NCBI GenBank assembly: GCA_002423395.1
Contig: DIVZ01000007.1
Span: 132,442-196,441 of the forward strand
Length of the DNA: 64,000 nucleotides
Origin: Eubacteriaceae bacterium UBA6119
GTDB taxonomy: Bacteria > Bacillota > Clostridia > Eubacteriales > UBA1433
Direction: 5' to 3'
Shown here piece by piece: positions 1,917 through 57,030 of the stretch; the first letter of the stretch is position 1, and each line of letters starts with the position of its first letter. Both the position numbers and the translations under genes were made by a program. The notes beneath the pieces are model-generated. The model saw only the letters and a list, made by a program, of their open reading frames with translations. It did not search any database and was not told the DNA's origin.

Positions 1917-3020
1917 TTAAATATTTTTATTATCTTTTACAAATACCCATCGCCTCTGAATTTGAAAACTAATAAAAAACAGAACAAAATCTATAATCGC
2001 TTTTATTGCTGTTAGGTTCATACTAAGGTTATTATATACAATAGTAACAAGCAGCCACGATGCAAGCAGTTGAACTGAGCATAATAAATAGTATTTGATA
2101 ATAGAATTTTTCATTTTTGAAGTATTATTAAATACGACGTTTTTATTAACAACGTAATTAAAAAGTGAAGATATAACTCTTGCAAAAAGAGTGCTGAAAA
2201 AAATCGTCATTGATATGGTTGTAAGGTTGTTAAACATAACGGAAGATAAAAAAGCAAATAAACCAATATCAATGAAAAATGACAGCATGCCTGATAAAGA
2301 AAATTTAAAAAAGCAGCTCAGCATCATAAAATATATAAATAAAGAATCTTTAAACGGATTAAAATGAGAGGATTCATTTTTATCAATATAGATTGTTTGT
2401 ATGCTCTCTTCGGCAATATCTACCTGCTCTCTGACAGCTGAAATGAGCATACCCGTTTCATATTCAAAGTGTTCACCTTTAACAAATAAACAGTTATTAA
2501 TGAATTTATAAGGAATTCCGCGCAGCCCCGTTTGCGTGTCGTTTATTTTTTTACAATATAATAACGCAAAAACGGCAGTAGTAATTTTATTTCCCCATCT
2601 GCTTTTAAAAGGCACGTCTGACTGGTTGAAATTTCTTGTGCCTAGTATAATTTTATTATTTTCTTCCATAAGTCTTTTAGCGACATTGACAGTATCTTCA
2701 GCGCTGTGCTGACCGTCAGAATCCGCCGTAACAATACCCGCCATTTCATTATATGAGAATGTATTTATAAAATAATTAAATCCGGTCTTTAAAGCTCTTC
2801 CCTTGCCTTTATTAACATCATGGTGAAGGACAATACCGTCATATTTTTTTTCAATTAAGTTAAAATATTGCTGCGCGTCTTCTTTGCTGCCGTCGTCAAC
2901 GACAATAATTTTTTTAATTCCGGCATTTACTAAATCCTTTATATATGAAATCAATTTTTCCGAAGGATTTAATGAAGGAATTAATACTGCAACATTTATA
3001 TTATCTGTATCTTGTAGCAT
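1917..3020 (-). CDS. Family-2 glycosyltransferase fused to a GtrA-like membrane domain (polyprenyl-phosphate sugar synthase type)
   Basis: N-terminal 'VAVLIPSLNPSEKL...IIVVDDGS...TADSDGQH' (GT2 DxD/DxSDGQH). C-terminal 4-TM region 'RVISSLFNYVVNKNVVF...QRRWVF' typical of GtrA. Confidence 0.8.
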   Translation of the reverse strand: MLQDTDNINVAVLIPSLNPSEKLISYIKDLVNAGIKKIIVVDDGSKEDAQQYFNLIEKKYDGIVLHHDVNKGKGRALKTGFNYFINTFSYNEMAGIVTADSDGQHSAEDTVNVAKRLMEENNKIILGTRNFNQSDVPFKSRWGNKITTAVFALLYCKKINDTQTGLRGIPYKFINNCLFVKGEHFEYETGMLISAVREQVDIAEESIQTIYIDKNESSHFNPFKDSLFIYFMMLSCFFKFSLSGMLSFFIDIGLFAFLSSVMFNNLTTISMTIFFSTLFARVISSLFNYVVNKNVVFNNTSKMKNSIIKYYLLCSVQLLASWLLVTIVYNNLSMNLTAIKAIIDFVLFFISFQIQRRWVFVKDNKNI

Positions 3021-12302: not shown

Positions 12303-12328
12303 AAAAAACAGCCGTCGGCTGTTTTTTT
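12303..12328. terminator. Bidirectional intrinsic terminator
   Basis: AAAAAACAGCC-GTC-GGCTGTTTTTTT between convergent asnB and the minus-strand cluster. Confidence 0.7.
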
Positions 12329-12354: not shown

Positions 12355-12828
12355 TCAATTATATGTTTTTCTTCTTATCGCGGTTATTATAAGAATAATA
12401 AAACCTACTGCTGCAAATGTGTATCCGATAATAAAGAAATACGTTGAAAAAACGGAATCAGCTCCCGCGACTTCCAATATCCCATTAAATAAATTTCCTG
12501 CCGCCAGAAGCGCTATACCTGAATTATATATGTTATAAAACAGTCTATATCCTTTATATCGATTAATAAGAGGAAATATTAACCTTACTAAAGCATAGAA
12601 TATTACGCCGCCGATTAAAGGATATACAAACATATAAGTCATTGCGGCGGAACGCACTCCATGACCGAAAATCGCGTAGATGTTATCTATCGCAATTGCA
12701 GATACAGATAATATAAAATATACGATTATAGTTTTTTTGATTTGTTTGGTATAAATATTATTGTCAATATCTGATGTGAACAATGTCGCTAACCTCTCTT
12801 TAATAACACTGAGAATATAATAGCCCAA
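12355..12828 (-). CDS. Small polytopic membrane protein of unknown function, last gene of the envelope cluster
   Basis: About 4 predicted TM segments, no motif recognised. The track start is TTG 12828 without an SD. TTG at 12783 is preceded by AAAGAGAGG and may be the real start. Confidence 0.45.
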   Translation of the reverse strand: MGYYILSVIKERLATLFTSDIDNNIYTKQIKKTIIVYFILSVSAIAIDNIYAIFGHGVRSAAMTYMFVYPLIGGVIFYALVRLIFPLINRYKGYRLFYNIYNSGIALLAAGNLFNGILEVAGADSVFSTYFFIIGYTFAAVGFIILIITAIRRKTYN

Positions 12829-12852
12829 CTGAATCTTTTTTTAAAGAACTTT

Positions 12853-13908
12853 TTAATTTTTTGCATATTTTTTTAGTCCGTTAAAAATATATTTCTTCTG
12901 AATAATATAACTTATGAAAAACAGCATTGTATCAACAAAAATTTTAATTAACAATATTGGCATTGAAATTTTTGAAAGCAGGCTTACGAGCGCCCAGCTT
13001 GACAGCATTTGTATGCAAAATAACGCAACATATTTTATAAATTCTTTACCTATGTAGTTTTTGCTTTGAAAAACCCAGTACTTATTAAGCATGAAGTTTA
13101 TATTGCCCGAAGTTACTCTGGCGATAACGGTTGCGAAGAAAATGCCTGTTGTGCTTGTGCCGAAAACTAGGTGTGCAAGCAAAGCAAACAGAGATAAATC
13201 TGCCGCTGCCGATAGAACAGATGAAACGCTGTATTTTATTATATTTAAATAAATTAATACAGAGTCGCGCACCGTATTGAAATGACTTGAAGAGTTGTTG
13301 TCGGTGTATATAACCGAAATCGGAACATTTTTTACATCAATTTTATTGTTTGTTATTTCCATAAGCAGATTCATTTCATATTCATATCTCTTGCCCGGTA
13401 TAGCAAGGCATAAGTTTGTATAAACTGCAGGAATTCCACGAAGACCTGTTTGGGTATCTTCACATCGTTTGCCGGTGCTTAACAAGAATATAATAGATGT
13501 CAGACGGTTGCCGAAACGGGACCTTAGGGGTATATTTTTCTCGCTGAAATTCCTGGTTCCGAGAATAAAGCTCTGGGGGTGATTAATAAGAGCATTAGAT
13601 ATTTTAACAATATCACCTACAGCATGCTGTCCGTCTGCATCCGCTGTAACATAACCCGAGATATCGCGGTAGTTGCCATGAGCATATTTTATTCCTGTTT
13701 TAATAGCAATACCTTTGCCTTGATTATGCTCGTGCGTACAGACGCTGCACTTTAAATCTGTTATTAATTTTTCAAAAATGTGTTTATACTCCTCCGCGCT
13801 GCCGTCGTTTATTACTACTATCTCAAAGCCTTCTTTTTTTAAGTATTCCGCCAAATATATAAGTCTTTCATCGGGATTGAGAGCAGGTATTATAATAATG
13901 GGTTTCAT
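12853..13908 (-). CDS. Family-2 glycosyltransferase fused to a GtrA-like domain (paralog of 1917..3020)
   Basis: 'IIIIPALNPDERL...IVVINDGS...TADADGQH' plus C-terminal 'RVTSGNINFMLNKYWVF...IQKKYIF'. Confidence 0.8.
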   Translation of the reverse strand: MKPIIIIPALNPDERLIYLAEYLKKEGFEIVVINDGSAEEYKHIFEKLITDLKCSVCTHEHNQGKGIAIKTGIKYAHGNYRDISGYVTADADGQHAVGDIVKISNALINHPQSFILGTRNFSEKNIPLRSRFGNRLTSIIFLLSTGKRCEDTQTGLRGIPAVYTNLCLAIPGKRYEYEMNLLMEITNNKIDVKNVPISVIYTDNNSSSHFNTVRDSVLIYLNIIKYSVSSVLSAAADLSLFALLAHLVFGTSTTGIFFATVIARVTSGNINFMLNKYWVFQSKNYIGKEFIKYVALFCIQMLSSWALVSLLSKISMPILLIKIFVDTMLFFISYIIQKKYIFNGLKKYAKN

Positions 13909-13939
13909 ATAGCTATCTCCAAACTCTGTAGTATATTTA

Positions 13940-15610
13940 TTAGTTTCTACCCGGCATATTGTTGTTATTGCCCGGGGTGCGGGTCTGCCCGCCGCTATTA
14001 TTGTTTGTCACTTGTGTACCGTTATCTGAAATTGTGGTAACCACAGAAGATATCGTTATATCTGTAAGTTCTTTATTATTTACTTTTAAAGTATAAGTGC
14101 CGCCTTTTACTAAAGATGCGCTGCTTAACAATATTGATTGATACTTTTTATTAGGTGTATACGAAAGCACAGTACTTCCGTTTTCATCTGTGAGAGTAAC
14201 GGTTGAGCACGCCGTTTGAGCAGACGAGAAAATTACCGTTATTGAGTATTGCGTTGAACTGGTCGATGGCGACTGCGTCATACCGGAGCTTCCCGCTATT
14301 GTTAGAGTGCCGCCCGTTAAATAGCATGTGCCGTTATAATCAACGGGAGCATCCGCGTTGCTTACAGGGCCGCTGATCTTTAATACACCGCCTTTAAAAT
14401 ATATGGAACCGTTAGAATCTATTCCGTCACCGCCAGTATTTAGAGTTATGTCGCCGCCTGTTATTGTTATGGTACAATCGGTGTCGTTGGCAAACTGATC
14501 TTTATTGTTTTTATTGTTGTTATCGGATGAGGAGTCAGCGCCGCCGGCTGAATTGAAACCGTCGTCTTTTGAGGTTAAGTCTATAACGCCGCCGTTAATT
14601 GTAAGCGCCAACGCTTCAAGACCTTCATAACAGTTTTTTACGAATATCGATCCGGCGTTGACTGTTAAAACAGAATTGGCGTGAAGAGCGTCATCACCCG
14701 CGCTTATTATAATGTTTCCGCCTGATATTAAGATATTGCCGTTTGAATGAAGCGCGTCATCAGCAGAAACTATATTAAGCGTACCTAAATTTATCTGAAG
14801 CAAACTTTCAGAGAGAATGCCTTTGCCCGTTGATTTTATATTAAATGTTCCGCCGTCTATTGATATATAGCCTTTCTGCGTATCGTCGGCATTGCTGGCT
14901 TTCAGTCCGCTGCCGCTATTTGCAATTAAAGTAAATGTGCCGCTTTTTACAGCAATGGAATCTTTGCCTTTTATCGCGTCATTTACCGCGGTTACTTTAA
15001 TGTTTCCGCCGGTTATCATCAAGTCGTCTTTTGATGTTATTCCATTTTTATAGTTGCCTGTTATATTAAGAGTACCGCCGCCGTTTATGGATAAATCGGT
15101 TTTGCAGAATATAACGCTGTCAGGCTCATCTTCTCCTGCTTTAAGCACATAAGAATCAGAATCCGAAAGATTGTTTGTAGTGTTGTCTGCAATAGTTATT
15201 ATTACTTTATCCGCGCTAACGCCATAAATTGCTGGGCCGATTAAATTGGTTATGTTTGCATTGTTTAATATAATTCTGACGATGTCATCTTTATCTGCAT
15301 CTACGACTATTGTGCCGTTATTAAGTGTGCCTGACAACACGTATGTCCCTGCTGATGTTATGCTTACCGCGCTGTTGTTTACTTGGGCGCCTGAGCCGTC
15401 AACCGATGCAGACGAGCCGTTTAAAGTAATTTTTGTGACGCTTGATGCATCCCAAGTGCTTGTGGTATCTTCATCTTTGTATTCTACGCTTACTGAAGTA
15501 AGATAAGATGAAGATGTATTCGAAGATTCTTTTGAGCAACCACCAAAAGGTATAACCATCAAAGCAATTATTAAAAATATTAATAAGTTTTTAATTTTTT
15601 CATTTTTCAT
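13940..15610 (-). CDS. Lipoprotein with Cthe_2159-like (DUF4353) beta-helix carbohydrate-binding repeats
   Basis: Lipobox 'VIPFGGC'. At least 9 repeats of the I-(T/S/D/N)-GG-x-(I/L/F)-x-(I/V/L) type (ITGGNIKVTA, IDGGTFNIKS, ISGGNIIISA, INGGVIDLTS, ITGGDITLNT, LTGGTLTIAG and others). C-terminal Ig-like region and N/G/T-rich tail. Confidence 0.7.
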   Translation of the reverse strand: MKNEKIKNLLIFLIIALMVIPFGGCSKESSNTSSSYLTSVSVEYKDEDTTSTWDASSVTKITLNGSSASVDGSGAQVNNSAVSITSAGTYVLSGTLNNGTIVVDADKDDIVRIILNNANITNLIGPAIYGVSADKVIITIADNTTNNLSDSDSYVLKAGEDEPDSVIFCKTDLSINGGGTLNITGNYKNGITSKDDLMITGGNIKVTAVNDAIKGKDSIAVKSGTFTLIANSGSGLKASNADDTQKGYISIDGGTFNIKSTGKGILSESLLQINLGTLNIVSADDALHSNGNILISGGNIIISAGDDALHANSVLTVNAGSIFVKNCYEGLEALALTINGGVIDLTSKDDGFNSAGGADSSSDNNNKNNKDQFANDTDCTITITGGDITLNTGGDGIDSNGSIYFKGGVLKISGPVSNADAPVDYNGTCYLTGGTLTIAGSSGMTQSPSTSSTQYSITVIFSSAQTACSTVTLTDENGSTVLSYTPNKKYQSILLSSASLVKGGTYTLKVNNKELTDITISSVVTTISDNGTQVTNNNSGGQTRTPGNNNNMPGRN

Positions 15611-15648
15611 AAGTCACCATTGTATATTTTATTTCATTTTGTCAGTAA

Positions 15649-16335
15649 TTAAAGTTCTTCTTTTCTGTCGGGGATTTCTCCGCAAATCACATTTAAATTT
15701 CCATTTCTGCATCTTATTTCATCGATAAAGTTTTTTTCTATTTCTTCATTTTTTAAAACGATTTTATATTTTAATTCATATAAAGTGCCCATATTAGTTG
15801 TTTTAACTCTTGCCAATTCGGCATATTTCGTATATTTTTTAAACAAATCATTAAATAAACCGTGATAATTAAGATTTTCAGGAATTGTTATTTTAAGCTG
15901 TTTTGATTCTCGTTTAGGCTCTCCAAAACTAACTTTATTTAGAATCATACTTGACAGTCCTATAATTATCAGGAATATAAAAGCTATTGCAATATAACCC
16001 ATGCCGGTAGCAAGACCTGTTGCCATTGCAAAGAATATGCTGCTTATTTCTCTGGCATTACCGGGAATTGAACGGAAACGAGTTAAACTGAATGCGCCCA
16101 GCACAGCAACCCCGGTGCCGAGATTGCCGTTTACTACCATTATTACAAGCTGTACAATTGCAGGCAGAAGCACTAAAGTTACAATAAAACTTTTTGTATA
16201 TGAGCTGTTTTTATACATATATATAAAAGCCGCGCCGAAGCCCAGCACCAAAGACGCAAAAGTGCATATCAGCAGGTAGCTTATCGTAATTGAAGCAGGT
16301 GACGTTGTTGTTGTGTTGATGATACTGTCGAGCAT
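15649..16335 (-). CDS. DUF4956 membrane protein
   Basis: 'MLDSIINT...' N-terminus, 4-5 TM segments, soluble C-terminal 'LKITIPENLNYHGLFNDLFKKYT...YELKYKIVLK' domain. Always seen next to bacterial VTC-domain genes in my experience. Confidence 0.7.
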   Translation of the reverse strand: MLDSIINTTTTSPASITISYLLICTFASLVLGFGAAFIYMYKNSSYTKSFIVTLVLLPAIVQLVIMVVNGNLGTGVAVLGAFSLTRFRSIPGNAREISSIFFAMATGLATGMGYIAIAFIFLIIIGLSSMILNKVSFGEPKRESKQLKITIPENLNYHGLFNDLFKKYTKYAELARVKTTNMGTLYELKYKIVLKNEEIEKNFIDEIRCRNGNLNVICGEIPDRKEEL

Positions 16336-17039
16336 TTGACGACTCTCTCTTTACTTAAGATAAATTTTTTATAACAGTAGCCGTATTTTGAAAATGAAAC
16401 GGGATATACTTTTAAATCATTTAAAAGCTCGGCAAGCCAAAACGGAATGCTGTCTGAGAATTTTATTTCCATTAAAAACTGTGAAGGATCCATTAACTGG
16501 CGCCCGCAATTTCCGCTTCGTAAATCAATGTCTGTTTGTCTGAATCGGATATTATCATCAAAAGTTATTCTTAAATTTGAGTCGCTTTTTTTATAAAAAG
16601 CAATCCTGTCATATGCTATAAAAATTTTAGGAAAAAGTTTATAGCGATACATAAACCAATCTATTTCGTTAAGTATTTGACCTTTTTTTGGCGGTTTTAG
16701 CTGGTAGTTCAAATAATTTCGCGCATCCGAATATGAAAGTGTTAATCTTCTTTTGTATACAATTCCGTCAAATTTTTTCTTTAGTTCCAAAAAAACTTCT
16801 GTTTCATTAGTCGGTATGCAGTAACTCCTTAGTCTTAGTTTTTCTTTATATACAGGTTTTTCGATAGAAGCTCTTATAAGGTCGTAGCTGTCGGTGTCAT
16901 AATATATGTTTGATATGGTGTTAGGACCGTGTTCGTCTTTTACCATATACCTTGCAGCCTGCGACATTAACTCTTTATATTGAGACTGGGTTATAATATA
17001 TTTTTTTTCATAACGTTTGAACGCTTCCACGGTAGTCAT
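16281..17039 (-). CDS. VTC-domain (polyphosphate polymerase / triphosphate-tunnel fold) protein
   Basis: 'FKRYEKKYIITQSQYKELM', 'IYYDTDSYDLIR...EKLRLRSY', 'LELKKKFDGIVYKRR' and 'MEIKFSDSIPFWL' fit the VTC/CYTH-like family. Its last 55 nt overlap the DUF4956 start. Confidence 0.75.
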   Translation of the reverse strand: MTTVEAFKRYEKKYIITQSQYKELMSQAARYMVKDEHGPNTISNIYYDTDSYDLIRASIEKPVYKEKLRLRSYCIPTNETEVFLELKKKFDGIVYKRRLTLSYSDARNYLNYQLKPPKKGQILNEIDWFMYRYKLFPKIFIAYDRIAFYKKSDSNLRITFDDNIRFRQTDIDLRSGNCGRQLMDPSQFLMEIKFSDSIPFWLAELLNDLKVYPVSFSKYGYCYKKFILSKERVVKCSTVSSTQQQRHLLQLR

Positions 17040-17395
17040 AATATGTCACTCCTTTTTTAATTTTCTTACATTTATAAGATATCCGACAACCTTGACAGCA
17101 CAATGGGGAAAATGTGAAATCATTGTGACTTTTATTATTTTTTTTAAAACCGAAAATTTATAATACGCAAAATATTAATTAAGGAGGTTTATATATTTAT
17201 TATAACTAAATTTCTTTTATAAAATATCATGCAAACCTTACAGGTTTTACGATAAAAGCCTTACGAATTTCTTAATTTATATTTGTCTGCAGAAATACAA
17301 TTTTAGCAGTGAAATGCATAATATGTAATAATACTTTTATAATATAAGGCATAAAAAAACAAACAACCGTTTTTTAAAAGTTGTTTGCTTTAAAA

Positions 17396-18298
17396 CTAAT
17401 ATCCTATATATACAATATCGCTTATTGCTCTCTCGGTTCCGTCTGACGGATGATTTACAACTTTGCCATTAAAATACATTGTTGCAGAACCTCCTCCGTC
17501 TAAGTTATATGCCCATACGCAGCCCTTATCGTAAAGAATTTGCGCAAGTTCTTTTAACGTAAGACCTGTGCTTGTTTTTGTTCTGCCGTCACAGACGGCG
17601 AATATATAATGTAAAAGGGAAATTTGACCGATTGCAGTGCGAGGATTGGTTGTTGTGAATGCTGCTGATTTTGTCATTTTGTTTGCGGTTATTTTACCGT
17701 TTTCTATAAGACCGGGTCCGAATGATATTATTTGACTTAAAGTTCCGCTGTTTAATAAAGATTTGCTTATTTCACTGTCCGCCTCTATTAAGAAATTACC
17801 CGATGTATCGATAATTAGGGCGTCATATCCTGAACCCCTAGAACTCGTTCTATATAGTTTGCCGTTGCGTAATACATAGCCGTGGTCTCTAAAACCGTAA
17901 TAATCTCCGTTAACGGCTAAGATAGCGCTGTGAGAACTTGCCATTTTGGACGTAATATCTTTAATATTGCGTCCGTATGAATTTTTCGCAAATGCCGTTT
18001 TTAAATACGATGCATCTTTAAGCTGTATATCCGCAATATATATAACAGTATTGTACTCTTTAATAGTCTCGATTGTTATTTTGATGTTATCATCTGAATA
18101 GGAAGTTTCTGTAATCACCGGAGCTGAGGGCTGTGAAGGCTGATTTTGAGAATCGGAAGTATCGGTATTCGCGGCGGTTATGGCTTTAGGAATTACAAAT
18201 GTGTCCAGCATTGCGTATGCAAAAAATAATATAAGCAATATAGAAAATACAATTGTCCATCTGTAAGGTTTTGATAAAAAACGTTTTATTTTATTCAT
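17396..18298 (-). CDS. Phosphodiester glycosidase (NAGPA/DUF2233) family protein, membrane-anchored
   Basis: N-terminal TM anchor. 'AVNGDYYGFRDHGYVLRNGKLYR', 'PRTAIGQ' and 'NLDGGGSATMYF' are hallmark motifs. Confidence 0.7.
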   Translation of the reverse strand: MNKIKRFLSKPYRWTIVFSILLILFFAYAMLDTFVIPKAITAANTDTSDSQNQPSQPSAPVITETSYSDDNIKITIETIKEYNTVIYIADIQLKDASYLKTAFAKNSYGRNIKDITSKMASSHSAILAVNGDYYGFRDHGYVLRNGKLYRTSSRGSGYDALIIDTSGNFLIEADSEISKSLLNSGTLSQIISFGPGLIENGKITANKMTKSAAFTTTNPRTAIGQISLLHYIFAVCDGRTKTSTGLTLKELAQILYDKGCVWAYNLDGGGSATMYFNGKVVNHPSDGTERAISDIVYIGY

Positions 18299-19906: not shown

Positions 19907-20281
19907 ATGGAAATTCAAAAAGTAAGCAGGAATAACATTGATATTGCAATTATTCAAAGTAATGAATTATTATTGTATGATATTGATTCTGCTTTGGATT
20001 TTATGGCTGCGGTAAACTATGAGACTGAGTGCAGAAATATAGCAATTAATAAAGAGTCACTAACAGAGGATTTTTTTAATTTAAGCAGCGGCTTGGCAGG
20101 ACAAATTTTGCAAAAGTTCGTGAATTATCATATAAAATTTGCGATTATTGGCGACTTGTCGAAATATACAAGCAAAGCCTTTAATGACTTCATGTATGAA
20201 TGCAACAACGGGAAAAGCATTTTTTTTGTACCCACAAAGCAAGAAGCGATTAAGAAATTAGCGGAAGCAAATAACACCTAG
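19907..20281 (+). CDS. DUF4180 domain protein
   Basis: 124 aa. The pattern '...ALDFMAAV...IAINKESLTEDFFNLSSGLAGQILQKFVNYHIKFAIIGD' matches my recollection of DUF4180. Confidence 0.55.
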   Translation: MEIQKVSRNNIDIAIIQSNELLLYDIDSALDFMAAVNYETECRNIAINKESLTEDFFNLSSGLAGQILQKFVNYHIKFAIIGDLSKYTSKAFNDFMYECNNGKSIFFVPTKQEAIKKLAEANNT

Positions 20282-21318
20282 TTAAGAAGATGCAAAATTT
20301 TAGGAATAAATATTATTAAACCGGCAGCCGCGGCGGCGATTGCAATAACTAATACGGCTCCTGCGGATATGTCTTTAGCTTTCTTTGCCATAGGGTTTAT
20401 TTGGGGAGTAACCAAATTTACTATTGTTTCCAAAGCGGTATTAATCATTTCCATTGAAATAACAAGACCGAACAATATTATGCAGGTAATCCATTCTTTA
20501 AGGCTTATTTTTAAAAATATTCCGACAAGGATTACAATCATCGCAATTATATAATGAATTATTATATTCCTTCCGCTTTCAAATGATATCTTGATGCCGT
20601 TAAAAGCGCAGCGAAAACTGTTTATCAAACTGCTATTATTTTGTGATTTTCGATTCATTTTTTTGTTATCACCTTTCAGATAAATTGAAGTGAGTTTTGT
20701 AAATCCAATTAAATAGGCAATTGACACCAAAAAGGCTGCCGCTATATCGCTTGTGTAATGAACGCCGAGATAAACTCTGCTTACGCCTATTAAAATTATA
20801 AGAATACTTAAAAATACGGTAGAGGCTATTTTTAATTTTTTCCTTATATCAGTCTGCCAAATAAGATAAATTATAAAACCGTAAAAAGCGGCGGAAGTCA
20901 TTGCGTGACCCGACGGGAAACTGTATCCGCTGACTTCAACTAAATATATATTACTCGGTCTTGGGCGGGCAAAAATTGTTTTTAGCAGCATATTTAATAC
21001 AGTTGTATTTATAAGATTTAAAATTATAAGAAAGCCGTATTTTTTTCCTCTGATAAAAATAAGAAGCAATATACAGAAAAATATAATAACTTCAGTGCTT
21101 GCCAGGCTTGTTATAGATTTAAATAACACAGTATTAGCAGGACTGATTATGTTTTGCATACCGTTATATATAAAACTGTCAAACGCAATTTTTTCCTTTC
21201 CCCACACATTTTCTGCTATTAAAGTAAATAAAACCAGGCACAATAACGCAAACAGCCAATCTTTATTAGCTATGATAAATTTTATCGTTTTATTAATTGG
21301 CTTAATTAAATATCGCAT
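20278..21318 (-). CDS. Fusion protein: PAP2 lipid phosphatase + diacylglycerol/undecaprenol kinase (DgkA) domain
   Basis: PAP2 motifs 'KTIFARPRP', 'PSGH' and 'SRVYLGVHYTSD' in the N-terminal 210 aa. DgkA motifs 'EMINTALETIVNLV' and 'AKDISAGAVLV' in the C-terminal 120 aa. Confidence 0.75.
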   Translation of the reverse strand: MRYLIKPINKTIKFIIANKDWLFALLCLVLFTLIAENVWGKEKIAFDSFIYNGMQNIISPANTVLFKSITSLASTEVIIFFCILLLIFIRGKKYGFLIILNLINTTVLNMLLKTIFARPRPSNIYLVEVSGYSFPSGHAMTSAAFYGFIIYLIWQTDIRKKLKIASTVFLSILIILIGVSRVYLGVHYTSDIAAAFLVSIAYLIGFTKLTSIYLKGDNKKMNRKSQNNSSLINSFRCAFNGIKISFESGRNIIIHYIIAMIVILVGIFLKISLKEWITCIILFGLVISMEMINTALETIVNLVTPQINPMAKKAKDISAGAVLVIAIAAAAAGLIIFIPKILHLLN

Positions 21319-21519
21319 AACAGTTTAATATATACTCTTTTTAGTATTTTTCAATTACTTATTTGTTAATCATTTTAATATTATTAAATATTCAGAGGTT
21401 ATTTATTACTTTATATATCTCATCTATTTTATCTCGGTTTTATTAAAAACGAGATGAGGCAGACGGATATGCGATGTAAACACCGAATATTACAAGGGCT
21501 CTTATGAGAAATTGATGTG

Positions 21520-22602
21520 TCATTTAGAATATTCTATACTCCAGTCTTCAATAATTTTGCTTAATTCAATTTTCTCGGTTTGTTTTTTTATGAGGCGCAT
21601 TTGATTTTTCATAATATTTAATTGATTATCATCATGAAGCAATTGCGCAAGTTCATCATATGTTTTTGAATTATTATTCCATATTACTTTTCCAATGCCG
21701 TTTTGCTCTACAAAACCGGCATTGACTATTTCATGGGCTATAGTCGGTTTTATAATGAATATCGGAAGTTGTAAACTTATCGCTTCAAATAAAGTAATGC
21801 CGCCCGGTTTTGAAATAAGGATATCGGACGAGCTCATAAGCTGAGAGACATTATCCGTATAGCCAAGAATTTTAATATTTTTATATTTGCGCATAAGGCT
21901 TTTATACAGGCTTTTATTATTACCGGTTATTACTGTAACATTTATTCCGCTCATCTTATTTAAGTGAAAAAGAATGTCTTTGCACTTAGGAATTAATCCG
22001 ATTCCTCCGCCCATTATTAATACGTTTTTATTTATCTCTTTAGCGCGGAAAAAATTCTGAGCTTTAAATTCCTGCCTTACAGGTATTCCGCTTATATAGA
22101 TATGTTCACTTTTAAAACCTTTTTTAACAAGAAAATCTTTTATTTCTTTGCATGCGACGAAATAGGCATCCGTGTTATCTGAAATCCACTGACTGTGATA
22201 TGTAATGTCTGTTATCAATGTAAACAAAGGCACGTTATTTAATTTATTTGACTCTTTATATATAGATACATATTTTGATGTAAGAGGCGATACGGAAATA
22301 ATCAAATCGGGAGAATAAATATTTATTAGCTTATCTATTTTTTTATTTGAAAAGTTTTTAAAAGGGTATGCGTTGATTTTATCGCTTATGTTAAACAATA
22401 AATTGAATAGTTTCGGCAGTTTGCATACAACGAAATTAAATGTTTTATAAATAACAGTATTTAAATTCGGCAAAGCAAATTCCAAAAAATCAACAATATC
22501 AATTATAGAATTTGGATAGGAGTCAGTGATTTCCTGCTTTACAGCTTCTGACGCACAAACGTGACCCATTCCAAATTGTCCGTTTAAGATTAAAACACGC
22601 AT
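21520..22602 (-). CDS. MGDG-synthase-like GT28 glycosyltransferase (diacylglycerol glycosyltransferase, UgtP-like)
   Basis: 'MRVLILNGQFGMGHVCASEAV' N-terminal MGDG_synth pattern and C-terminal 'ISKPGGITLFEA' GT-B motif. Confidence 0.75.
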   Translation of the reverse strand: MRVLILNGQFGMGHVCASEAVKQEITDSYPNSIIDIVDFLEFALPNLNTVIYKTFNFVVCKLPKLFNLLFNISDKINAYPFKNFSNKKIDKLINIYSPDLIISVSPLTSKYVSIYKESNKLNNVPLFTLITDITYHSQWISDNTDAYFVACKEIKDFLVKKGFKSEHIYISGIPVRQEFKAQNFFRAKEINKNVLIMGGGIGLIPKCKDILFHLNKMSGINVTVITGNNKSLYKSLMRKYKNIKILGYTDNVSQLMSSSDILISKPGGITLFEAISLQLPIFIIKPTIAHEIVNAGFVEQNGIGKVIWNNNSKTYDELAQLLHDDNQLNIMKNQMRLIKKQTEKIELSKIIEDWSIEYSK

Positions 22603-55332: not shown

Positions 55333-56382
55333 ATGACAATATCATTACCGGATTTTATTTCGCAGTTAATATCTAACCCAGCATTATTAATAACCGTATT
55401 ATTAACGCTGGGCGTTATTATGGTAAACGGATGGACTGACGCGCCAAACGCTATTGCGACATGCGTTTCAACGCGTTCAATGAGTCCGCGTTCCGCTATT
55501 TTAATGGCGGCGGTTTTTAATTTCCTCGGCGTATTTGTAATGACAATGGTAAACGCCACAGTTGCTCAGACAATATATAACATGGTAGATTTCGGCGGCA
55601 ATTCGCATGAGGCACTCATTGCGCTTACCGCCGCTTTATTTGCAATAGTTTTATGGGCGACCGCCGCATGGGCGTTTGGCATACCGACAAGCGAATCTCA
55701 TGCTTTAATTGCAGGAATATCGGGAGCCGCTATAGCAATTCACGGCGGTATGTCAGGCATAAACGGCGCGCAGTGGATAAAAGTTATTTACGGACTCGGT
55801 TTGTCTACGGTTTTGGGATTTGTTATGGGATACATTACTGTTAAATTGACTGAGCGCATGTGTCTGAATTCGGACAGGTGCAGGATGCACGGCTTTTTTC
55901 AAAAAGCGCAGATAGGCGGCGCCGCGTTAATGGCGTTTATGCACGGAGCGCAGGATGGGCAAAAGTTTATGGGCGTGTTTATGCTGGGTATATTTTTAGC
56001 TAAAGGCACAAACGCATCAACGTTTGTCATACCAATTTGGCTGATGGTTTTATGTTCGCTGATAATGGGACTCGGAACTTCAATAGGCGGAATGCGCATA
56101 ATAAAATCAGTCGGTATGGACATGGTTAAGCTTGAAAAATACCAAGGGTTTTCGGCGGACCTTGCAGCATCAATATGTTTATTGCTTTCTTCGCTTTCAG
56201 GCATTCCCGTAAGCACTACGCATACAAAAACAACTGCGATAATGGGAGTAGGAAGCGCGAAACGTTTATCAAACGTAAACTGGAGCATAGTAAAAGAAAT
56301 GCTCTCCGCATGGTTTTTAACATTTCCCGGATGCGGGCTTATAGGGTTTTTAATGGCATTATTATTTATAAAAATATTTTAA
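55333..56382 (+). CDS. Inorganic phosphate transporter, PiT family
   Basis: 'NGWTDAPNAIAT' and 'GIPVSTTHT' signature pair. Confidence 0.85.
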   Translation: MTISLPDFISQLISNPALLITVLLTLGVIMVNGWTDAPNAIATCVSTRSMSPRSAILMAAVFNFLGVFVMTMVNATVAQTIYNMVDFGGNSHEALIALTAALFAIVLWATAAWAFGIPTSESHALIAGISGAAIAIHGGMSGINGAQWIKVIYGLGLSTVLGFVMGYITVKLTERMCLNSDRCRMHGFFQKAQIGGAALMAFMHGAQDGQKFMGVFMLGIFLAKGTNASTFVIPIWLMVLCSLIMGLGTSIGGMRIIKSVGMDMVKLEKYQGFSADLAASICLLLSSLSGIPVSTTHTKTTAIMGVGSAKRLSNVNWSIVKEMLSAWFLTFPGCGLIGFLMALLFIKIF

Positions 56383-56406
56383 AATAATATGGAGAAGCTA
56401 ACATAA

Positions 56407-57030
56407 ATGAAAAGAAACAAAGAATTTAATTATTTTGATGAATTTATAAAACTTGCTGATTTCTGCTGTCAATCTGCTCAAATGCTGCATCACGTATTAT
56501 CAAATTATAATCCTCATGAAATTGAAGCTCAGATGCTGAAATTGCATGAAATAGAACACCTGGCAGATCAAAGTATGCATAATGTTATGAACAAACTGAT
56601 GAGAGAGTTTATTACTCCTATCGAACGGGAAGATATTATCAGCCTTGTTCAAAATATAGATGATGTTACGGATGCTATAGAAGACGTAATAATGAGAATG
56701 TATATGTTTAATATACAGAAAATAAAACAGGAAGCGTTGGAATTTACGGAGCTTATAGTAAAATGCACTCAGGCATTAAAGACAGCAACGGAAGATTTCA
56801 GCAATTTCAGAAAATCGAAAACAGTAAAAGATAATATTATACAAGTAAACCATTTGGAAGATATCGGCGATAAAATGTATACCGTTGCGGTGCGGAATTT
56901 GTATATATCGAGTAAAGATGCAATCGAGATACTGTCATGGACTCAAATATTTAATAAACTTGAAAATTGTTTTGACGAATGCGAAGATGTGGCAAATTTG
57001 ATGGAAAGCATAATAATGAAAAATACTTAA
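56407..57030 (+). CDS. DUF47 / PhoU-like putative phosphate-transport regulator
   Basis: 207 aa. 'LHEIEHLADQ...FITPIEREDI' and 'NHLEDIGDKMY' repeat halves. Confidence 0.8.
   Translation: MKRNKEFNYFDEFIKLADFCCQSAQMLHHVLSNYNPHEIEAQMLKLHEIEHLADQSMHNVMNKLMREFITPIEREDIISLVQNIDDVTDAIEDVIMRMYMFNIQKIKQEALEFTELIVKCTQALKTATEDFSNFRKSKTVKDNIIQVNHLEDIGDKMYTVAVRNLYISSKDAIEILSWTQIFNKLENCFDECEDVANLMESIIMKNT

Follow-up and report, generated by a model that had tools for sequence, protein, structure and literature searches.

What does a VTC-domain protein do in a bacterium, and why is its gene paired with that of a DUF4956 membrane protein? This question is raised by a 64,000-nucleotide stretch of Eubacteriaceae bacterium UBA6119 (contig DIVZ01000007.1; hereafter the window, with a GC content of about 35% which, like the relatives retrieved, indicates Clostridia), on whose minus strand the two genes are followed by those of a Cthe_2159-family beta-helix lipoprotein, of a GT2-GtrA fusion and of a small protein with four predicted transmembrane (TM) helices, the 4-TM protein. 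The stretch is identical to part of a contig in the JGI metagenome 3300002498. Recent reviews on polyphosphate (polyP) assign VTC to eukaryotes and PPK to bacteria (PMC12526157, PMC10657179). Here, at least several hundred species-representative genomes, most of them clostridial, were found to encode a Vtc4-like enzyme that retains the complete set of catalytic residues. The answer that we put forward, giving it somewhat less than an even chance, is that VTC, DUF4956 and the lipoprotein (module A) form a split, membrane-docked polyP polymerase whose product reaches the cell surface.

First, the VTC protein of the window matches PF09359 over profile positions 1-234 of 235 (4.5e-44; 151.2 bits against a cut-off of 23). 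The VTC domain was likewise matched by 20/20 aligned homologues, and CYTH, marginally, by 2/20. The label "VTC/CYTH-like" given in a preliminary description of this DNA therefore holds for its VTC part and not for the CYTH likeness. The AlphaFold2 (AF2) model (pLDDT 87, pTM 0.81) adopts the closed beta-tunnel fold and its best Foldseek match is Vtc4 (3g3r; E 9e-14, TM-score 0.71). Indeed, ranks 1 to 13 are all occupied by Vtc4, Vtc3 or Vtc2 (E 9e-14 to 6e-11, TM-scores 0.62-0.71), with CYTH cyclases and TTM hydrolases ranking lower (E around 1e-8 or weaker, TM-score around 0.5).

Cryo-EM of the eukaryotic VTC complex identified K200, R264, R266, K281, R361, K458, S457 and Y359 as triphosphate ligands needed for polyP synthesis, E426 as a Mn2+ ligand, and K458 as the sole triphosphate ligand replaced in the inactive Vtc2 and Vtc3 (bioRxiv 10.1101/2023.01.27.525886). 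Residues were mapped by aligning an HMMER profile of 20 VTC homologues to yeast Vtc4 (8i6v_E, native numbering). By this alignment, Vtc4 K200, R264, R266, K281, K294, Y359, R361 and R373 correspond to K13, R69, R71, K87, K96, Y143, R145 and R157 of the window protein, all of which are invariant across the bacterial family alignment. The C-terminal strands lay beyond the local alignments of HMMER and hhalign (the latter, against a fungal Vtc4 fragment, covered residues 41-166 only), and neither a fragment query nor a C-terminal profile gave anything useful against PDB chains; this region was resolved by global MAFFT alignment with the fungal Vtc4 fragments P0296 and P0328. The fungal FSKF motif (S457, K458) aligns there with F216-S217-K218-Y219, in which S217 and K218 are invariant in the family. 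The equivalents E191 (for E426) and K193 were assigned by motif only (LEVKL in Vtc4, MEIKF here), MAFFT having offset this strand by 3 columns.

Where Vtc4 has chain-guiding basic residues, an acidic patch (E2, E4, E90 and E171 in AtTTM3) is found in TTM hydrolases (Martinez et al., PMC4641920). At these positions the bacterial VTC family has R9, E11, K96/R98 and K193, that is three basic and one acidic. By sequence and by model, the VTC protein is thus Vtc4-like rather than CYTH-like, and its catalytic residue set makes it a candidate polyP polymerase. The tunnel-fold catalytic residues, on whose presence the preliminary description had made its proposal depend, are present and invariant, in a model closest to Vtc4. 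The likeness to eukaryotic Vtc4 (3G3Q/3G3R, 8I6V, 7YTJ) extends to the K/R/R/K/Y/R triphosphate set, to the S-K pair with the K458 equivalent, to the genetic tie between the enzyme and a membrane protein and perhaps, by motif matching, to the Mn-binding Glu. The differences are also clear. The window protein, about 22% identical, consists of a single VTC domain with neither SPX nor a covalently attached DUF202 three-helix TM domain, is accompanied by no Vtc1/2/3 paralogues, and so stands outside the eukaryotic complex architecture. It carries the extra acidic E11 in strand beta1, and its membrane partner is a separate and unrelated protein, predicted to be MgtC-like with five TM helices and an ACT/PII-like domain.

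We next consider the pairing itself. Searches limited to 8000 candidates gave more than 7700 matches each for VTC and for DUF4956 (counted as clusters at 90% identity); at 50% identity, DUF4956 comprises 4926 clusters (E <= 1e-3). Species-representative genomes hold at least 593 VTC relatives. In a VTC-centred sample of 81 loci (80 retrieved relatives and the window), DUF4956 lies directly downstream of VTC in 79, so that the pairing is not due to chance and the neighbourhood conservation that had been proposed as a check is borne out for these two genes. The two exceptions are L039, whose sequence ends about 500 nt past VTC, and L064, which lacks DUF4956. The genes overlap at 67 of the 79 junctions, by exactly 8 nt at 51. 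In this 8-nt class, a GGAGG Shine-Dalgarno (SD) sequence lies within the VTC tail in 50/53 loci, the DUF4956 start is GTG in 42/53, the spacer between SD and start is 8 nt and the VTC stop (TGA or TAA) spans codons 2-3 of DUF4956. The VTC tail typically reads ...K-G-G-x-x-C-A-stop (last ~30 nt, L002-L081). Since this peptide encodes both the GGAGG SD and the DUF4956 start, the conserved VTC tail is largely a translational-coupling signal. Judged from these junctions, VTC and DUF4956 are translationally coupled family-wide.

The junction of the window is of a less common phase class. From the DUF4956 ATG (16335), the VTC frame reads on for 55 nt to its stop (16281), with AAAGAGAGAG 7 nt 5' of the ATG; the MLDSI start is backed by 100% query coverage in homologues and by the conserved N-terminal motif (M/V)(L/F)(D/N/E)S(I/L). 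Relatives in this class overlap by 19 nt, K-C-x-x-V-S-stop being read over M-F-T-S-I-L. In the window, residue 6 of DUF4956 is Ile (ATC) and not Leu (TTA), so the nearer VTC stop is gone and the frame runs on for 55 nt. The resulting 18-residue VTC tail (KCSTVSSTQQQRHLLQLR) is common only to the closest relative (P0001/L124) and is disordered in the AF2 model. The long overlap, with its MLDSI start and SD inside the VTC coding sequence, had been described correctly and is indeed unusual, ranking third longest of 79. Its proposed value as a sign of coupled translation did not hold, the family norm being 8 nt. We therefore rejected it as a special coupling device: the tail is not conserved and the loss of the nearer stop is lineage-specific. 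From the sequences compared, the 55-nt overlap is a derived by-product, and the meaningful feature is the family-wide coupling. A 337-aa protein in which VTC positions 31-183 are joined to DUF4956 positions 51-219 (P0440) was rejected as evidence of fusion; this truncated chimera lacks the catalytic C-terminal strands and is probably deletion-derived or a pseudogene, not a functional fusion. No clean VTC-DUF4956 fusion was found in the representative protein library.

Which gene is the third partner of the pair? The lipoprotein that follows it in the window matches PF14262 with 279 bits in 3 stretches and carries the lipobox PFGGC and about 11 xGGx-type rungs by eye, which confirms the beta-helix lipoprotein of the preliminary description (lipobox FGGC, at least 9 rungs, Cthe_2159-like). 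A Cthe_2159 gene is linked to VTC-DUF4956 in 50/81 loci, and in 38/50 of those with adequate flanks, either 3' of the pair in the same orientation or 5' of it and divergently oriented; at least 38/51 of these partners have a lipobox pattern. The founding member of the family, from Clostridium thermocellum, was described as binding cellulose and polygalacturonic acid (PMC6712302). The window protein belongs to the same beta-helix family but differs in being a lipoprotein with an extra C-terminal domain, tied to VTC-DUF4956 and not to plant-polysaccharide genes.

Two natural variants further define this unit. The closest relative, L124, is collinear with the window at 82% nucleotide identity, in the order NAGPA1 | VTC-DUF4956-Cthe_2159-GT2GtrA-NAGPA2-TM4, where NAGPA denotes a putative phosphodiester glycosidase and TM4 the 4-TM protein. 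The second variant, the metagenome contig L082 (Ga0228535_1016737), is 96.7% identical to window positions 17664-17038 and resumes at 13937-12455 (92.3%). It lacks exactly VTC, DUF4956 and Cthe_2159 (window 13938-17037), the missing segment starting at the VTC ATG and ending about 14 nt beyond the Cthe_2159 stop. At its junction, the VTC 5' leader, in which the VTC SD is kept, is joined to the SD of GT2-GtrA at a short AT-rich microhomology, and L082 also carries the NAGPA2 loss of the window. With the VTC SD still in place in L082 and the cassette present in the outgroup L124, the simplest account is that L082 arose by deletion. The joint loss indicates that VTC, DUF4956 and Cthe_2159 behave as one unit, and also that this cassette is dispensable in nature. 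Altogether, the core third partner of VTC-DUF4956 is the Cthe_2159 lipoprotein, not the glycan genes. The embedding in a glycan cluster, as first described, thus stands in so far as these genes adjoin VTC-DUF4956 in some loci, but they are not core partners (3/81 loci).

We also examined the membrane protein. DUF4956 matches PF16316 (2e-14; 54.1 bits against a gathering score of 30.6), as do 25/25 aligned homologues. It is better conserved than VTC, with 60-70% identity across genera, and has the invariant motifs VNGNLGxGxAVxGAFSLxRFRS and RCRNGNL. Its AF2 model, built from 25 close homologues, is poor (pLDDT 62); at this low confidence it has a C-terminal beta-alpha-beta-beta-alpha-beta domain preceded by five TM helices. 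An N-out/C-in topology agrees with the loop charges; the C-terminal domain would then face the cytoplasm, as would K48, R86 and R88, on the same side as VTC. Foldseek gave no match in the PDB at E < 1e-3, and the weak PII-like/ACT matches (E >= 2.5e-3) concern the C-terminal domain only. The model being poor and the fold matches non-significant, we claim neither a channel nor an oligomer. The cytoplasmic domain shows a Foldseek likeness to the cAMP/c-di-AMP-binding PII-like protein SbtB, and residues ~139-181 give weak Pfam matches to prok_STING in 7/25 members (best E 0.007). These are hints that the domain may bind a nucleotide. In expression papers on B. thetaiotaomicron and S. mutans, DUF4956 appears as bare table entries, which are uninformative.

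The MgtC profile (PF02308) scores below threshold (12.3 bits against 31.4), with weak matches in 11/25 members (best E 0.011). On these profile scores, DUF4956 is at most a distant relative of MgtC/SapB. It would have in common with MgtC/SapB/YhiD a predicted N-out/C-in core of five TM helices and a cytoplasmic ACT-like domain, on a low-confidence model, and some homologues are labelled YhiD by JGI. It differs by remaining below the Pfam gathering score of that family and by its own signature motifs, and MgtC is not known to partner a tunnel enzyme. This distant similarity, with which a published AF2-based description of the S. intermedius homologue as MgtC-TM plus ACT agrees (PMC12345266), is the starting point of an alternative in which nothing is exported. 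VTC would make or trim internal polyP for cytoplasmic phosphate or ATP homeostasis, DUF4956 would be an MgtC-like anchor or regulator whose ACT/PII-like domain senses a metabolite, and the lipoprotein would be linked for regulatory or unrelated reasons. The resemblance of the C-terminal domain to nucleotide-binding PII/ACT folds fits this scheme, as does the fact that bacterial polyP is classically cytoplasmic; the conserved basic residues K48, R86 and R88 would lie at the cytoplasmic interface, although the positive-inside rule alone could explain them. We nonetheless regard this alternative as rather unlikely: the pair is co-deleted with its most conserved third partner, a surface lipoprotein, the CotH, NAGPA, DUF4832-containing glycoside hydrolase and pel partners are all extracytoplasmic, and in yeast the coupling of a Vtc4-type polymerase to a membrane protein serves translocation.

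The same cytoplasmic domain could also belong to a signalling pair, in which the tunnel enzyme would be a nucleotide cyclase or triphosphatase that makes or removes a signal, and DUF4956 would read this signal and gate a membrane function, following a second-messenger or defence-like logic. CYTH/TTM enzymes include class IV adenylate cyclases, which are present among the fold matches of VTC; SbtB is the best likeness of the DUF4956 domain, the weak prok_STING matches point the same way, and E11 keeps one residue of the acidic patch. Such a role is nevertheless very improbable, given that the residue profile and the fold are Vtc4-like and not CYTH-like, that the catalytic K458 equivalent is invariant, and that, unlike in defence islands, conservation is high and synteny with the lipoprotein and a two-component system is steady over hundreds of Clostridia. 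PADLOC matched 0 defence families for all six proteins, and a defence-system reading was rejected on this ground.

A further question is how module A relates to the glycan genes that follow it. NAGPA-1, upstream of the VTC gene, matches PF09992 with 133.7 bits (gathering score 25) and has the N-terminal TM anchor and the NLDGGGS motif already noted in the preliminary description. It is the orthologue of the upstream copy in L124 (88% at the amino acid level) and is 59% identical to the canonical in-operon copy. L124 holds an intact 301-aa NAGPA2 where the window misses about 811 nt. The remnant left in the window (12866-12789), whose product MQKIKKFFKKRFSWAIIFSVLL... resembles the NAGPA1 N-terminus, overlaps the GT2-GtrA stop. 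The TTG start at 12828 listed for the 4-TM gene falls inside this deletion scar, and the most likely start by sequence is TTG 12783, which is preceded by the SD AAAGAGAGG and gives 142 aa; the small protein reported earlier is thus real, with a start that probably lies further downstream. Its family has no Pfam model and is marked by the motifs YAIFGHGVRSAAMT and YNxxNSGIAxL (L082-L123).

The neighbourhoods of these genes were drawn from 42 TM4-centred loci obtained by a metagenome scan with the 4-TM protein. NAGPA is immediately 5' of TM4, adjacent or usually overlapping, in ~36/42 loci, an arrangement that suggests a NAGPA/4-TM membrane complex. GT2-GtrA is often found 5' of NAGPA, and GT2GtrA-NAGPA-TM4 forms a conserved trio that recurs in most of the 42 loci. 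The best NCBIfam matches of GT2-GtrA are PpgS, AglJ and dolichyl-P hexose transferase, all below cut-off (69 bits against 370 for PpgS), and its domains allow a class-level assignment as a polyprenyl-phosphate glycosyltransferase. As in Gtr-type systems, CsbB and PpgS, a GT2 catalytic domain is fused to a GtrA-type TM domain; the differences are that all equivalog cut-offs are missed, that there is no GT-C transferase and that a NAGPA ectoenzyme and a novel 4-TM protein are encoded downstream. Our reading of this gene content is that the trio (module B) would be an independent lipid-linked-sugar pathway, in which GT2-GtrA would make a polyprenyl-P-sugar on the inner face and, on the outer face, the NAGPA-type enzyme with its 4-TM partner would act on the sugar-phosphate bond, by cleavage or by transfer of the sugar. 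About 10 kb from the operon copy, at 1917-3020 (-), the window encodes another GT2 + GtrA_DPMS_TM protein, a paralogue of 367 aa (phmmer 5e-79 to the operon copy).

The trio adjoins VTC-DUF4956(-Cthe_2159) in L089, L099-L102, L109 and L121, and also in L028, L029 and L124. It does so in about a third of the informative trio-centred loci; among the VTC-centred loci, NAGPA and TM4 are found beside VTC in 3/81 and GT2-GtrA in 2/81. In several loci it adjoins Cthe_2159 without VTC, and often a two-component system. Could the two modules then form one integrated pathway for a phosphate-containing or phosphodiester-linked glycan, in which phosphate or polyP from VTC/DUF4956 would be joined to sugars from GT2-GtrA, with processing by NAGPA and the beta-helix protein as scaffold or acceptor? 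The occurrence of all six genes together in three gene orders (window/L124, L028/L029 and L089) would fit, as would the presence of Cthe_2159 with either module (L090, L092, L097, L107) and of an adjacent two-component system that is often common to both. But the rarity of NAGPA and TM4 at VTC loci, and the lack of VTC in most trio loci with adequate flanks, make this improbable. Moreover, GT2-GtrA and TM4 persist in L082 although the cassette is gone, and the in-operon NAGPA is missing from the window, which indicates that the modules can work, and be lost, separately.

The features of the locus are collected in Table 1. The Pfam profile search showed that the minus-strand open reading frames (ORFs) and domain calls of the preliminary description are all correct, and the 356-nt gap and the terminator after NAGPA that it reported are also present. 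This hairpin (-12.2 kcal/mol, z = -2.56, then U7) was found by RNA folding and missed by a simple terminator scan; the operon-ending terminator folds with -12.7 kcal/mol (z = -4.9).

Table 1. Features of the locus in the order of minus-strand transcription (positions within the window).
Feature	Position	Strand	Evidence
NAGPA-1 (300 aa), putative membrane-anchored extracytoplasmic phosphodiester glycosidase family	17396-18298	-	PF09992 1e-38
Intrinsic-terminator-like hairpin and U-run 3' of NAGPA-1	17352-17391	-	RNA fold
Intergenic region that presumably holds promoter and leader for the VTC operon	17040-17395 (356 nt)	-	conservation in L082, L124
Direct repeat TCACA-N6-TCACA, candidate OmpR-family response-regulator site (lead only)	17113-17128	-	
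VTC-domain protein (252 aa), soluble, candidate polyP polymerase	16281-17039	-	PF09359, AF2, Foldseek, residues
VTC 3' / DUF4956 5' overlap (55 nt), encodes the non-conserved VTC tail KCSTVSSTQQQRHLLQLR	16281-16335	-	sequence
DUF4956 protein (228 aa), 5 predicted TM helices and cytoplasmic ferredoxin-like domain	15649-16335	-	PF16316
Cthe_2159-family beta-helix lipoprotein (556 aa)	13940-15610	-	PF14262 4.5e-83
GT2 + GtrA_DPMS_TM fusion (351 aa), polyprenyl-phosphate sugar synthase class	12853-13908	-	PF00535, PF04138
Remnant of second NAGPA gene (25 codons), MQKIKKFFKKRFSWAIIFSVLLKRG*	12789-12866	-	read from sequence; comparison with L124
4-TM protein (142 aa from TTG 12783; ORF open to 12828)	12355-12783	-	L028/L029 alignment; JGI 142-aa call
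Operon-ending intrinsic terminator	12303-12327	-	11-bp stem and T-run

The 356-nt region is 96.7% identical in L082, where it lies directly 5' of GT2-GtrA, and conserved blocks are in common with L124. The deletion in L082 indicates that this region very likely holds a promoter that also serves GT2-GtrA and TM4, and the two conserved envelope modules that the locus joins are apparently transcribed from this single promoter. An Rfam scan of the gap revealed no riboswitch or leader, the only sRNA matches being sub-threshold and over the terminal terminator. The gap also contains the direct repeat TCACA-N6-TCACA, with an 11-nt period, 89 nt 5' of the VTC start. The repeat is kept at -85 in L124, has TTACA versions in L061 and L065, and occurs in 4/73 upstream regions against about 0.1 in shuffles. 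It resembles OmpR/PhoP-type boxes, a likeness that we offer as a lead and not as a finding. A two-component system is a frequent neighbour of VTC that the preliminary description had not foreseen: an OmpR-type response regulator and a histidine kinase accompany VTC in 35/81 loci, and in 26/50 with adequate flanks. NCBIfam scores for RppA-, PhoB- and WalK-like subtypes were below cut-off, so that no PhoPR assignment is made, and the window contains no two-component genes.

The gene pair is already known from another context. In pel operons of streptococci, clostridia and bifidobacteria, the genes for cotH, the polyP polymerase, DUF4956 and DUF4832 were reported as accessory (Whitfield 2020, PMC7112168), and the C. 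perfringens NELoc-2 locus carries VTC-domain genes, each followed by that of a ~225-aa cytoplasmic-membrane protein, beside CotH (Lepp 2010, PMC2879425). The link to CotH named in the preliminary description is therefore real (PMC7112168, PMC12345266, PMC2879425). CotH lies beside VTC in 6/81 loci and, as had been noted, is absent here: a phmmer search with a CotH seed found none across the whole window, and a Pfam survey reaching about 10 kb from the VTC gene turned up neither CotH nor a DUF4832 hydrolase nor pel genes. The pel accessory sets (PMC7112168; SIR_1591-1594, PMC12345266; PMC2879425) have in common with the window the VTC and DUF4956 genes in the same order and an envelope or exopolymer context. 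They differ in their partners, which in the window are the Cthe_2159 lipoprotein, GT2-GtrA, NAGPA and the 4-TM protein. The three-gene arrangement that contains CotH was reported not to be found outside pel loci (PMC12345266); the VTC-DUF4956 pair, as our loci show, is widespread outside them. Thus, what is previously undescribed is the partner set made of Cthe_2159, the two-component system and the GT2-GtrA/NAGPA/4-TM trio. Among the papers searched, we found no biochemical characterisation of a bacterial VTC protein and no functional test of the gene set, which agrees with the earlier statement that the module is functionally uncharacterised; it had not gone unnoticed, though, being described as an accessory set of Gram-positive pel operons.

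How would a split polymerase then operate? First, the soluble 252-aa tunnel enzyme, judged by its residue set, would build polyP from the gamma-phosphate of ATP. Translational coupling would keep its amount in a fixed ratio to DUF4956, on whose cytoplasmic face it would dock, and the nascent polyanion would pass outward through or alongside a DUF4956 oligomer. Finally, the membrane-anchored beta-helix lipoprotein, which would bind polyanions and Ca, would hold the chain at the surface. We infer polyP synthesis, the physical complex, outward transfer and capture by the beta-helix protein, the export step being drawn from the analogy with VTC and from the extracytoplasmic nature of the other recurrent partners (lipoprotein, NAGPA, CotH, DUF4832 hydrolase and Pel).

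Several observations weigh against such a split polymerase. MgtC, the nearest relative of DUF4956, is known as a regulator and not as a pore. In eukaryotes the VTC channel is formed by DUF202 helices, to which DUF4956 is unrelated, and DUF4956 is represented here by a poor model (pLDDT 62) whose fold matches are non-significant and limited to the C-terminal domain. Activity, complex and channel are all inferred; the equivalence of E426 and E191 comes from motif matching and not from an algorithmic alignment, and with E11 one residue of the acidic patch that typifies TTM hydrolases persists. As L082 shows, the cassette can be dispensed with in nature, and module B lies beside module A in a minority of loci, so that a single shared pathway is not required. 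In S. intermedius, each gene was deleted in a 2025 study (PMC12345266). Without the DUF4956 homologue SIR_1592 or the CotH gene SIR_1594, aggregation in artificial sputum fell by more than 50% and Pel levels were altered, and for the mutant in the VTC homologue SIR_1593 no aggregation phenotype was reported. This difference between the VTC and DUF4956 deletions argues against a strictly joint action of the two proteins. Of these points, three weigh most: the membrane partner is unrelated, the model of DUF4956 is poor and the S. intermedius phenotypes disagree.

A bolder version of the split polymerase is that VTC-DUF4956 is a minimal bacterial polyP synthase-exporter that delivers polyP outside the membrane, and thus the prokaryotic counterpart, possibly a relative of the ancestor, of eukaryotic VTC. 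We hold this to be doubtful. External polyP would then be a surface polyanion held by beta-helix lipoproteins. Secreted CotH kinases have no ATP supply outside the cell, and in the CotH/pel loci polyP could be an extracytoplasmic phosphoryl or energy donor for them; it could also cross-link the cationic Pel.

Other genes of the window are worth recording. At 20278-22602 (-), 2-4 kb from NAGPA, lie a PAP2 + DAGK_prokar fusion and an MGDG_synth/GT28 glycolipid synthase. PAP2 and DAGK_prokar domains relate to polyprenyl-phosphate recycling. The same order is found in L124, which points to a wider region with an envelope-lipid theme. A PiT-family phosphate transporter (PF01384) followed by a PhoU_div/DUF47 protein, a pair for phosphate uptake, is encoded at 55333-57030 (+), about 39 kb from the VTC cassette. 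Finally, a sortase-linked cluster at 46767-53000 (+) comprises a 781-aa VWA protein, several signal-peptide proteins of ~200 aa and a sortase; two of the ~200-aa proteins were scanned and gave no Pfam match. From its gene content, this cluster looks like a pilus or adhesin locus.

The split-polymerase hypothesis runs against the division of polyP synthases between kingdoms that the reviews describe. If the VTC protein makes polyP, it would be a third, so far unrecognised, bacterial polyP synthase, and if this polyP is exported, the pair would provide the first dedicated bacterial route of polyP secretion. The system is small, with a soluble enzyme of 252 aa and a membrane protein of 228 aa, and relatives that naturally lack the cassette are available, which makes the question directly testable. 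If true, the hypothesis would bear on how gut and anaerobic Firmicutes build their anionic surface layers, on the role of the unexplained accessory genes in Gram-positive pel biofilm operons, and on the origin of the eukaryotic VTC machine.

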